Below, piece after piece: positions 1,573-2,836 of a DNA stretch of 12,066 nt. The stretch comes from a virus. Its lineage: Duplodnaviria; Heunggongvirae; Uroviricota; Caudoviricetes. The notes below the pieces were generated by a model. It did not search any database, had not been told where the DNA came from, and saw nothing but the letters and a program-made list of their open reading frames with translations. Both the position numbers and the translations under genes were made by a program. Position 1 is the first letter of the stretch. Each line of letters opens with the position of its first letter. The DNA is taken from IMG/VR virus record IMGVR_UViG_2859793810_000009; one strand, written 5' to 3'.

Positions 1573-1615
1573 TGAGGTGTACTGGCAATAGCGGACACTA
1601 CCATTTGTTCTTTTT

Positions 1616-2437
1616 TTAAGCAGCCATCTGATGATGTTTTTCCCTGAAGGCTGCCGGGGAGATATTCCCCAGACGAGAGTGACGACGCTGACGATTGTAG
1701 AAAATCTCAATGTATTCCCGTATTACTGAGATGGCTTCATCCCGGTTATTAAAACGATAGTGGCTCAGGCTCTCATTTTTCAGCGTTCCCCAGAAGCTTT
1801 CCATCGGAGCGTTGTCGTAACAGTTACCTTTACGCGACATTGATGTTTTCAGACCAAACTGCTCCTGTATGACCCGGTAATCGTATGCGCAGTACTGTGA
1901 ACCTCGATCAGAGTGGTGGATTAGCCCGGCAGGTGGGCGCTGGCTCCTGAGCGCCATAAACAGGGCTTTACCTGTCAGCTCTTTTGTCATGCGCTCTCCC
2001 ATGGCGTAGCCGACAATTTCGCACGTATAAACATCTTTGATGCCAGCGAGGTACAACCATCCTTCCTGTGTGGCAACATACGTCAGGTCCGCCACCCAGA
2101 CCTGATTTGGTGCTGTAGGAGCGAACGTCTGGTTCAGCAGATTTGGCGCAACTGGCAGATTGTGGTTCGGGTTCGTAGTCGCTCTGAACTTGCGTTTCTG
2201 CTTACAGCGTAGCCTCAGCTCCTTACGAAGACGTGCCAGTCGGTCACGACCAACGATGATGCCATTCTCTGCCAGCTCCGTCTGGAGCCGCCGGGTTCCA
2301 TATGTTTCGCGAGTGCGGATATGTGCCACCTTAATCTCCAGTTTTAGCCGCTCATCACTTTGTTTTCTGTCTGAGGGTTCATGCTGTACCCAGTTGTAAT
2401 AACCGCTCCTGGATACACCAAATACCTGACACATCAC
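1616..2437 (-). CDS. IS600 OrfB (IS3-family transposase, DDE catalytic part)
   Basis: The 273-aa translation carries the rve/DDE integrase-core signature (HSDRGSQY ... YDNAPMESFWGTLK). It is normally expressed as an OrfAB fusion by -1 frameshifting, so the real N-terminus lies upstream of the first Met given here. Confidence 0.85.
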   Translation of the reverse strand: MMCQVFGVSRSGYYNWVQHEPSDRKQSDERLKLEIKVAHIRTRETYGTRRLQTELAENGIIVGRDRLARLRKELRLRCKQKRKFRATTNPNHNLPVAPNLLNQTFAPTAPNQVWVADLTYVATQEGWLYLAGIKDVYTCEIVGYAMGERMTKELTGKALFMALRSQRPPAGLIHHSDRGSQYCAYDYRVIQEQFGLKTSMSRKGNCYDNAPMESFWGTLKNESLSHYRFNNRDEAISVIREYIEIFYNRQRRHSRLGNISPAAFREKHHQMAA

Positions 2438-2469
2438 TTCAATGGGAAATTGTTGTCGCCATTGTTCGA

Positions 2470-2772
2470 TTAACGCGTATTTTTCAGTGACTCCTGTGCA
2501 AAATACGCTGTTGCTTTTTTTAATATATCTCGCTCAAGGCGAGCTTCATTTAACGCCTTACGCAGTTGCAGAATTTCAGATTCCAGTTCAGCCAGCGTGC
2601 GGGAACCAGGAGTACCGAGCCCTTTTCTGGCGGCGGTAACCCATTGTCCTAAAGTGCCTTCAGGAAGAGATAATCGGGAAGCGCCTTCACTGATCGAAAG
2701 TTGATTTTCAAGAACCGTTCTGACAGCTTCGGCTTTGAACTCTTTAGAGTAACGTTGGGTTTTTCTGCTCAT
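2470..2772 (-). CDS. IS600 OrfA (IS3-family transposase, HTH part), 100 aa
   Basis: The translation MSRKTQRYSKEFKAEAVRTVLENQLSISEGASRLSLPEGTLGQWV... is an IS3-family OrfA with a helix-turn-helix and leucine zipper; I recognise it as IS600. Confidence 0.85.
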   Translation of the reverse strand: MSRKTQRYSKEFKAEAVRTVLENQLSISEGASRLSLPEGTLGQWVTAARKGLGTPGSRTLAELESEILQLRKALNEARLERDILKKATAYFAQESLKNTR

Positions 2773-2836
2773 TATTAGCTCCTTCTGATGCCATTCTATT
2801 TCAGGAAGGAGTGTCCGTTAAACTCAGGCTACCTCA

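Follow-up and report, generated by a model that had tools for sequence, protein, structure and literature searches.

One of the closest described systems is the loss of the tra region of pINV, in which about 23 kb of mobility genes were lost at IS600 copies and the virulence element was stabilised (Michelacci et al. 2020, PMC7283534). Like the joint reported here, this loss involves IS600 in EIEC/Shigella, and recombination of IS600 was proposed to account for it. However, it concerns a plasmid whose reference IS600 copies are inverted and where only an IS remnant is left (PMC7283534), whereas the present locus is a chromosomal prophage carrying a complete IS600, with breakpoints mapped to the nucleotide by comparison with an orthologous intact element. 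IS600 is one of the five IS that expanded in all Shigella species, and losses of DNA between homologous copies of an IS are an accepted route of genome reduction in Shigella (Hawkey et al. 2020, PMC7373316). Many IS sites of S. flexneri trace to a common ancestor and past Shigella deletions have been hard to ascribe to IS (PMC7373316). The deletion proposed here can be attributed to an IS unusually directly, because the target duplication is missing and a near-intact orthologue exists.

The ipaH islands I-V of S. flexneri have already been named as "previously characterised" (PMC4226921). The analyzed window (the whole stretch of 12,066 nucleotides) is one of these chromosomal, phage-derived islands and shares 99.97% identity with S. 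flexneri 2a 2457T. The ipaH islands were reportedly first described by Jin et al. in 2002. A comparable kind of joint is said to have been observed by Cooper et al. in 2001 in the long-term evolution experiment of E. coli, where rbs deletions were explained by a new insertion of IS150 (IS3 family) followed by recombination with a resident copy. In that case, as in the window, an IS3-family element lies at a deletion joint devoid of target duplication, but the deletions affected a metabolic operon and were seen in real time, whereas the window harbors a prophage affected by an ancient event. In the literature that we found, a scope that leaves aside the original genome papers, the joint between integrase, IS600 and baseplate J gene, the size of the loss and the intact EIEC counterpart are not described.

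The present analysis identified the following features in the window:

1-261, minus strand: yfhL (4Fe-4S ferredoxin), chromosomal left neighbour (ORF; annotated yfhL in IAI1 and VL40)
214-231: attL core TTCACACATATCACAATT within the 5′ end of yfhL (18 bp; repeated upstream of yfhH)
476-1572, plus strand: tyrosine integrase pseudogene, codons 1-366 of 465 (98-99% identity to full-length E. coli integrases)
1573-1575, plus strand: TGA stop of the truncated integrase (first three bases of IS600; ends ORF 919-1575)
1573-2836, minus strand: IS600 (IS3 family), complete, 1264 bp (99.5% identity end to end with annotated copies)
1573-1599: IS600 terminal inverted repeat, orfB-distal side (27-nt arm, starts TGAGGT)
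1616-2437, minus strand: IS600 orfB, apparently intact transposase (Pfam rve 3.2e-26; NCBIfam transpos_IS3 4.9e-100)
2470-2772, minus strand: IS600 orfA, 100 aa (ORF; HTH_Tnp_1 domain)
2810-2836: IS600 terminal inverted repeat, orfA-proximal side (27-nt arm, ends ACCTCA)
2837-3534, plus strand: 3′ part of baseplate J/gp47 gene, codons 181-413 (99% identity to VL40 J, 1242 bp, from nt 541)
3536-4141, plus strand: DUF2612/baseplate wedge gene (Pfam DUF2612 2.8e-64; same gene order in VL40)
4128-6849, plus strand: tail-fibre gene split by IS2 (ORFs; IS2 at 5028-6358, transposase on the minus strand)
6852-7397, plus strand: tail-fibre assembly gene (ORF; VL40 annotation)
7421-8710, plus strand: second tail-fibre gene (ORF; VL40 annotation)
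8755-9300, plus strand: DUF4376 gene (ORF; VL40 annotation)
9301-11127, minus strand: ipaH effector gene, 608 aa, LRR and NEL E3 ubiquitin ligase (NCBIfam IpaH_Shig 3.2e-170, above cutoff)
11605-12066, plus strand: pin-type serine invertase gene, cut by the window end (ORF; annotated pinE in VL40)

The element located between the integrase and J genes fits IS600 in its length, terminal inverted repeats and orfA/orfB layout, as judged from its sequence. It aligns over its 1264 bp with copies from Shigella virulence plasmids annotated as "IS3-like element IS600 family transposase" (99.5% identity, 100% coverage). Its terminal inverted repeats are imperfect (70% complementary) and it starts with TG and ends with CA. 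The product of orfB matches the Pfam domains rve, rve_2, rve_3 and HTH_21. An A7G slippery run read from the sequence at 2514-2521 is the predicted site of a -1 frameshift between orfA and orfB, and orthologous copies carry the annotation "programmed frameshift".

An earlier note on this DNA, made from the sequence alone, claimed that the integrase ORF enters IS600, which provides its stop codon, and that a J reading frame begins mid-gene at the other edge of the IS. Both claims hold. The integrase is interrupted after nt 1098 of 1398, and the TGA is supplied by the element; the first base to the right of IS600 is nt 541 of the 1242 of J, which opens codon 181 of 413, in frame. Both remnants carry an additional frameshift: a 1-bp deletion between 863 and 864 splits the truncated integrase into ORFs 470-877 and 919-1575, and a 4-bp deletion between 3027 and 3028 splits the truncated J into ORFs 2852-3043 and 3067-3534. 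The intact J protein (413 aa) matches Pfam Baseplate_J (PF04865) at residues 90-241, whereas no Pfam match was found for the J remnant of the window, which keeps residues 181-413 and has undergone the further 4-bp deletion. The integrase, which ends at residue 366 of 465, is devoid of a complete catalytic domain and matches only positions 14-117 of the 172 of the Phage_integrase profile. The 99 lost residues contain the motifs TMCRKF, LHHSS and AEHY, in this order; Box II and the catalytic tyrosine were assigned by eye in this tail, which Pfam leaves unaligned even in the intact protein. Since the C-terminal catalytic region is lost, the integrase is probably inactive and the island is predicted to be unable to excise.

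Exact mapping of the ends of IS600 (gctgtaAAA|TGAGG on the left and CCTCA|AACgcc on the right) did not reveal any 3-bp target duplication, the flanking triplets being AAA and AAC, as the earlier note had stated. The ends are unambiguous because the first base of the IS differs on both sides from the next base of the native gene (gctgtaaaa|ggaat in the intact integrase gene and gtcact|aacgcc in the intact J gene). By contrast with this copy, all eight control IS600 insertions from E. coli, either gene-splitting or intergenic, are flanked by a perfect 3-bp duplication. The absence of duplication is a property of the insertion history and not of the element, and it signals a rearrangement at the IS600 copy of the window. 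A decayed duplication (AAA versus AAC) was considered and rejected, both flanks following the native genes up to IS600. AAC is the commonest triplet among the control targets (four of eight, with NAC in six of eight), which is consistent with a genuine IS600 insertion site in J; the left triplet AAA was found in none of the eight. The IS2 that splits the tail-fibre gene provides an internal control for simple insertion, with a perfect 5-bp duplication (TCCGC). This IS2 was also examined as a scar that would be common to VL40 and the window, and was rejected as such since the sites and the duplications differ (CAAAA versus TCCGC).

Comparison with related prophages shows what lies between these two genes elsewhere. 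In 160 E. coli genomes, yfhL has a full-length integrase gene (1398 bp) beside it; next to this gene, IAI1 carries helicase, DNA polymerase, primase and Q region. In the EIEC strain VL40, the slot between yfhL and yfhH holds one nearly whole prophage, whose left end carries the integrase and whose right end carries J, DUF2612, tail fibres, ipaHb and pinE. The two flanks of the IS600 of the window are found there collinear and on one strand, within this single prophage but 41,333 bp apart (positions 1211555 and 1252889 of NZ_CM177011.1). The interval carries genes for excision, replication, regulation, lysis, head, tail and baseplate. The comparison with related intact prophages proposed in the earlier note therefore gave the result expected from its reading, and the genes that it considered as missing between integrase and baseplate are among those carried by the VL40 interval. 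The divergence of the surrounding DNA is only about 1%, and the full-length ipaH and pin region has its ortholog only in the yfhL-slot prophage of VL40. The prophages of CFSAN029787 and FDAARGOS_943, which share the same structural module, also have a complete J with head and tail genes upstream of it. CFSAN029787 was rejected as a second reference for the yfhL slot, as it carries a different ipaH phage with another att site and another integrase. It nevertheless has its own integrase about 36 kb from J, which supports integrase and J lying far apart. The early regions are not the same between IAI1, VL40 and CFSAN029787, these phages being mosaic.

A second copy of the att core lies upstream of yfhH, both in VL40 and in S. 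flexneri 2457T (positions 18880-18897 of locus L011), and the chromosomal neighbours are kept in the S. flexneri loci, with acpS-shoB-yfhL on the left and yfhH-yfhB on the right. Since both att cores and both neighbours are retained in S. flexneri, the loss was internal to the prophage. To the right of the joint, intact genes begin with the DUF2612 wedge gene. The orthologs of the genes located between 6852 and 9300 match Caudo_TAP, phage_tail_N and DUF4376 in Pfam, and the pin-type invertase matches serine-recombinase families, all below their cutoffs. The ipaH gene is 99.6% identical over its full length to the ipaHb that occupies the same slot in VL40, whereas paralogous prophages match it in the NEL half only. 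The description of the remnant in the earlier note as integrase, tail-tip genes and effector is correct for what it lists but incomplete, since the wedge gene, two tail-fibre genes, the tail-fibre assembly gene, the DUF4376 gene and the pin-type invertase gene are also present. Among deposited phages, no DNA-level match to the J/wedge region was found; matches to phiP27 and P2-like phages are limited to the tail-fibre tips.

All 10 complete chromosomes retrieved through the wedge protein, among them S. flexneri 2457T and 8401, show an identical joint, and the triplets AAA and AAC are the same in all of them. Its presence in strains of serotypes 2a and 5 fits the ancestral IS sites reported for this species (PMC7373316). 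In the serotype 5 strain 8401, the truncated integrase (366 aa) and the truncated J (225 aa) are uninterrupted and do not have the 1-bp and 4-bp deletions; therefore, the frameshifts observed in the window are younger than the joint. The J of VL40 also lacks the 4-bp deletion. In three draft assemblies (GCA_900486195.1, GCA_900484485.1 and GCA_900486925.1), the IS600 of the window is joined to other DNA on its right and its sequence is mosaic; these contigs may be assembly chimeras.

Overall, collinear flanks, conserved att ends and lack of target duplication support the reading already put forward in the earlier note, i.e., an IS600-associated deletion or a recombination between two IS copies. 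We estimate at about 90% the probability that this joint is a deletion joint bounded by IS600, by either route, with IS600 as the probable cause of the deletion. Other histories would leave integrase and J side by side but fit the data poorly. The idea that the island never was a full phage, integrase and J being ordinary neighbours in this family, could draw on L017, a distant relative in the same slot, where only two ORFs separate the integrase from a J-like gene. The interval begins there with an excisionase-like gene and a truncated helicase, collinear with VL40; judging from this sequence comparison, L017 is itself a separate deletion with different end points, extending from inside the helicase gene to the J-like gene. 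No relative with integrase and J naturally adjacent was found among those compared. Natural adjacency is refuted by the mid-frame cuts of both genes (366 of 465 codons for the integrase, 233 of 413 for J) and by the complete prophage that VL40 carries between them. It is also highly improbable that IS600 is a bystander, inserted exactly at the joint after an IS-independent deletion between integrase and J, one copy of its duplication having then mutated. The two triplets do differ at only one position, but both flanks are native up to IS600 (four A's in the integrase gene and AAC in J), so that the mutation must have recreated the native sequence by chance, and IS600 must have landed precisely on the joint in a remnant only about 9 kb long. 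Furthermore, the triplets are identical in 10 chromosomes, and the divergence of the surrounding DNA is only about 1%. A recombination of the joint IS600 with an IS600 located elsewhere, the missing genes persisting in another part of the S. flexneri chromosome, appears very unlikely, although Shigella chromosomes are heavily rearranged at IS copies (PMC8072062) and although the three draft assemblies mentioned above show other DNA beside a mosaic IS600. Indeed, conservation of the order, the orientation, the att ends and the neighbours is the signature of a deletion, whereas an inversion would flip one flank, and the joint is canonical in all 10 complete chromosomes. Searching proteins with the 99 C-terminal residues missing from the integrase gave nine clusters, none of them an orphan S. 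flexneri-type fragment beside an IS600, but the recall of this search was poor, known full-length integrases being missed. Reciprocal flanks are in any case not expected after a simple deletion, since the other product, a circle, is lost.

Two routes to an IS600-bounded deletion have to be weighed, and we lean slightly towards recombination between two copies. The starting point would be a contractile-tailed prophage that carried ipaH and was integrated in the 5′ end of yfhL. Two IS600 copies of like orientation would have entered it in independent events, with AAA as the target in the integrase gene and AAC as the target in J. RecA-dependent homologous recombination of the two copies would then have excised the interval as a circle, subsequently lost, and left one hybrid IS600 whose left flank stems from one insertion and whose right flank stems from the other. 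IS600 is found in the sheath gene at two different sites (VL40 and VL7S7) and in the portal gene of an O121 strain; these repeated insertions in prophages of the VL40-type family make two copies in one prophage plausible. The alternative, which we regard as possible but would not bet on, starts from a single IS600 in J (AAC) or in the integrase gene (AAA) and continues by a transposase-mediated intramolecular adjacent deletion, an IS end or an IS-dimer junction attacking a second site in the same prophage. It gives the same product, namely a complete IS with one original and one new flank and without duplication, and J could be the primary insertion site given that AAC is a favoured IS600 target. 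IS3-family elements such as IS911 are reported to generate transposase-dependent adjacent deletions when transposase is abundant or IS dimers form. However, such deletions are a minor outcome for this family, which normally moves by a copy-out-paste-in mechanism through a circular intermediate whose integration yields a simple insertion and not a deletion. Nothing in the sequence separates this single-copy route from recombination. Comparison of the IS600 of the window with 11 other copies did not reveal an informative hybrid pattern, the differences being evenly spread; orthologous copies have themselves drifted by three to six substitutions, which makes this comparison uninformative. One megablast with IS600 and 300 bp of each flank found neither the joint nor an IS600 precursor at either site in 5426 complete E. 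coli genomes, no place covering at least 80% of the query. The absence of a two-copy precursor from this set is a point in favour of the single-copy route. A fragment from S. sonnei reads through the integrase site uninterrupted. The separate insertions of a two-copy precursor would be marked by the 30-mers CTCAGGCTACCTCA+AAAGGAATAAAACATG and GGTCAGGTGTCACTAAC+TGAGGTGTACTGG.

Whichever route was followed, an IS600-bounded deletion would have removed in a single internal event about 36-41 kb, from codon 367 of the integrase to codon 180 of J. Among the early and lysis genes, it would have eliminated the excisionase-like gene, helicase, DNA polymerase, repressor, primase, antiterminator Q and lysis genes; among those of the particle, the terminase, portal, head, sheath, tube, tape measure and baseplate hub genes. 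This size and this content are deduced from a relative in a family of mosaic phages and are thus approximate. Besides being unable to excise, the remnant island would also be unable to replicate, to lyse the cell and to form particles, and the ipaH effector would therefore be fixed in the chromosome. Whether the deletion went further, as a selected one-step "grounding" of the effector rather than neutral decay, by which ipaHb would have been fixed in the ancestor of S. flexneri along a recurrent path from phage to fixed island, seems doubtful to us. In a weaker variant of this proposal, the outward-facing end of IS600 might now add to the transcription of the tail-fibre/cargo region. L017, which belongs to a different enterobacterial lineage, has independently kept an integrase end, a tail-tip end and a cargo at the same att site; its end points differ from those of the window and its cargo is an O-acetyltransferase-like gene. 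This parallel hints that a path of this kind may be recurrent and constrained.

The kind of event and the kind of island described here are already known, and this locus is an ordinary example of IS reducing prophages to immobile remnants; it documents the current understanding and does not alter it. It provides a nucleotide-resolved example of how an IS can turn a mobile and potentially lethal prophage into a fixed virulence island, about 40 kb having probably been removed in one event while the IpaH E3-ligase effector was kept. It also indicates that one family of contractile-tailed prophages, still nearly whole in some EIEC strains, transports ipaH genes as cargo at its tail-fibre end. This prophage family would be useful for tracing how Shigella and EIEC gained their chromosomal effectors.

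The segment 1573-2836 of the window is a complete IS600 (1264 bp) that aligns end to end at 99.5% identity with annotated IS600 copies from Shigella virulence plasmids. It has imperfect terminal inverted repeats of 27 nt (TGAGGT...ACCTCA), its ORFs match NCBIfam transpos_IS3, and it includes the following features:

1616-2437, minus strand, IS600 orfB, rve domain
2470-2772, minus strand, IS600 orfA, HTH_Tnp_1
2514-2521, A7G slippery run

The left flank is a tyrosine integrase gene, 98-99% identical to a 1398-bp gene adjoining yfhL in 160 complete E. coli genomes. Since the intact gene reads gctgtaaaa/ggaataaaac at the breakpoint (slash), the integrase of the window ends after nt 1098 (codon 366 of 465); its TGA stop (1573-1575) comes from IS600. 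The right flank is a baseplate J gene, whose complete 1242-bp version in the enteroinvasive E. coli (EIEC) strain VL40 reads ggtgtcact/aacgcc at the breakpoint; position 2837 is nt 541 of this gene, where codon 181 of 413 begins. The earlier note had thus correctly described an integrase running into an IS terminus that supplies its stop codon and a J frame beginning in mid-gene at the IS boundary. At each end of the IS600, the terminal base is not the one that follows in the native gene, and the ends are therefore mapped unambiguously. The further claim of the earlier note, a missing 3-bp target duplication, also stands: the flanking triplets are AAA (left) and AAC (right).

The 99 residues lost from the integrase include the motifs TMCRKF, LHHSS and AEHY, in this order, in which the second Arg, the His and the Tyr nucleophile of a tyrosine recombinase would lie. 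This assignment was made by eye, since the Pfam alignment covers no more than profile positions 14-117 of 172, in the intact integrase as well. A protein search with these 99 C-terminal residues returned 9 clusters only and no full-length 465-aa integrase sharing them exactly; since known full-length integrases were not among them, negatives from short queries in that search are weak. In an S. sonnei integrase fragment (GCA_041897205.1, ABUPAK010000337.1), the reading frame is uninterrupted across the S. flexneri IS600 site (SPDGAVK/GIKHDG) and is broken 31 codons beyond it, adjoining a Y2_Tnp (IS91-type) transposase gene, and the VL40 integrase is split by IS1 at nt 1146. This integrase has therefore been inactivated in at least three ways.

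The missing duplication is meaningful, because a perfect 3-bp duplication borders each of the eight other full-length IS600 copies examined in E. coli genomes, which split genes or intergenic sites (AAC in four cases, and once each CCC, CAC, GAC and GAG), and the IS2 of the same window (5028-6358), which splits a tail-fibre gene, has a perfect 5-bp duplication (TCCGC). Compared with these elements, only the IS600 of the window and its orthologues have none. AAC, the favoured target among the controls, is also the triplet on the J side of the joint.

In VL40, the corresponding chromosomal slot (acpS-shoB-yfhL ... yfhH-yfhB) is occupied by a nearly complete prophage, with genes in this order:

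Integrase (with IS1), SNF2 helicase, Rha, Arc-type regulators, nuclease, Ant, family A DNA polymerase
DUF2815/DUF2800 genes, LexA-like repressor, primase, Q, holin, lysozyme
Terminase, portal, head genes, neck, sheath (with IS600), tube, tape measure
Baseplate hub, spike, J, DUF2612, tail fibres (one with IS2), tail-fibre assembly gene, ipaHb, pinE

Positions 1-1572 of the window align with 1209983-1211555 of the VL40 record and 2837-4665 with 1252889-1254721. Since both alignments are on one strand and in the same order, 41,333 bp of VL40 separate the two flanks and have no counterpart in the window, or about 36-38 kb of loss once the own IS insertions of VL40 are subtracted. This comparison with a nearly intact prophage, of the kind that the earlier note had proposed, bears out its claim that the genes between integrase and baseplate are absent. 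IAI1 likewise has an early region to the right of the intact integrase, and in prophages of CFSAN029787 and FDAARGOS_943 that share the structural module, a complete J is preceded by head and tail genes (J being about 36 kb from the integrase in CFSAN029787).

The J module is common to several ipaH prophages at different att sites. Only the VL40 prophage of the yfhL slot matches the ipaH of the window over its full length (99.6%) as well as the pin region of the window (98.2%), the paralogous prophages sharing just the conserved NEL half of this ipaH. An exactly shared 18-bp att core, TTCACACATATCACAATT, lies within the 5′ end of yfhL (214-231) and is repeated upstream of yfhH in S. flexneri 2457T (18880-18897 of the locus retrieved), and native chromosomal genes border the island on both sides. 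The loss therefore lies within a single prophage. The prophage is integrated in the 5′ end of yfhL (window 1-261), providing a replacement N-terminus, and a degenerate copy of the displaced yfhL start can be read by eye, on the reverse strand, where the island ends on the right, upstream of yfhH.

The structure, truncated integrase-IS600-truncated J, is a classic product of IS-associated deletion. In one route, IS600 would have been present in the integrase gene (target AAA) and also, in direct orientation to that copy, in J (target AAC), and recombination of the two copies would have excised the interval as a circle; in the other, the transposase of a single copy would have mediated an adjacent deletion. 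Both routes lead to the same end product, the favoured AAC target on the J side is compatible with either, and a comparison of the IS600 sequence for mosaicism gave no usable signal. We prefer recombination between two copies (probability of about 0.55), because IS3-family elements usually transpose via a circular copy that gives simple insertions, IS600 is repeatedly found inserted in prophages of this ipaH-carrying family, and recombination between IS copies is accepted in Shigella. This last point is documented for homologous IS copies (PMC7373316, PMC7283534). Deletion from a single copy is the less likely of the two.

AAA and AAC are one base apart, as would be expected of a decayed target duplication, but this is unlikely since both flanks match the native integrase and J genes up to the IS. 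Rearrangement rather than loss of the interval is also unlikely, because order, orientation, att ends and chromosomal neighbours are all preserved. A natural adjacency of integrase and J might be read from a metagenome contig of a more distant enterobacterium (ENA ERZ7982401 NODE_449, remnant 9111-15551, same slot), in which a frameshifted but full-length integrase reaches its natural end, only two ORFs separate it from the DUF2612 gene and no IS is found at the joint. However, its excisionase-like gene and truncated helicase align collinearly with VL40 as far as record position 1213098, and diverged J-like ORFs directly follow the cut helicase, before DUF2612 and tail-fibre-assembly fragments. 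We therefore rejected this adjacency as an independent deletion with other end points. The cargo of this remnant, in place of the Shigella ipaH, is a 640-aa Acyl_transf_3/SGNH acyltransferase.

S. flexneri 2a 2457T (AE014073) and the window share 99.97% identity. Over 70 bases, neither junction varies among the ten complete chromosomes fetched with the exact DUF2612 protein, which, going by accession numbers, we take to include 2457T and serotype 5 strain 8401 (CP000266). The assembly collection has 571 indexed blocks with exactly this 218-aa integrase ORF that ends in the IS, and a search of 5426 complete E. coli genomes found IS600 at neither site. Neither the truncated integrase (366 aa) nor the J fragment (225 aa) is interrupted in 8401; this strain lacks the 1-bp deletion at 863/864 (GACCTCAAAG to GACCCAAAG) and the 4-bp deletion at 3027/3028 (one AGTCAGTC unit lost) found in the window; both lesions arose secondarily and are confined to the 2457T-like lineage. 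The joint thus predates the two frameshifts, as would follow if the deletion had already left both fragments without function. Three draft assemblies (GCA_900486195.1, GCA_900484485.1 and GCA_900486925.1; IS600 at 3155-4418 of each contig) have the same left junction followed by different DNA in each (flanks ttc, tac and ctt). Their IS600 is a mosaic, with alleles of the window type up to about 2376-2405 and then those of other IS600 (2436G, 2488C, sometimes 2595C and 2668G), reflecting either real IS600-IS600 crossovers or short-read assembly chimeras.

The IS2 of VL40 (record 1255050-1256380) lies in the same tail-fibre gene and orientation as that of the window but about 45 bp upstream, with a CAAAA duplication, so this gene was struck twice independently. 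A pin-type invertase gene (11605-12066) accompanies two tail-fibre genes and a tail-fibre assembly gene (4128-8710), and segments 4666-5027 and 6359-6570, which do not align with VL40, could represent a host-range segment subject to inversion or exchange. At about 9134-9142, in the stretch that separates the DUF4376 gene from the ipaH stop, about 135 bp present in the other S. flexneri loci and VL40 are missing from the window and 2457T, so that a 181-aa DUF4376 ORF abuts ipaH; a 9-base alignment overlap suggests a deletion between short repeats.

In CFSAN029787 (record 518900-561435), FDAARGOS_943 and VL7S7, the same head/tail/baseplate module occurs at other att sites with different ipaH alleles: ipaHa adjoining a DUF1175/yfaT-region site, and ipaH3/Hc adjoining pphA. 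The CFSAN029787 prophage appears nearly intact (about 42 kb): its early region is lambdoid, it has four tRNA genes and an integrase and excisionase of its own, and one structural gene is frameshifted. Contractile-tailed phages of a mosaic family thus carry ipaH genes as cargo.

The ipaH islands of S. flexneri are established (PMC4226921), as are IS600 and IS-mediated deletion in Shigella. No description of the integrase-IS600-J joint or of its enteroinvasive counterpart was found in the literature searched, whose scope excluded the original genome papers. The earlier observation is correct and well documented by these comparisons; the joint itself is an ordinary example, from a reference genome, of a process already known.
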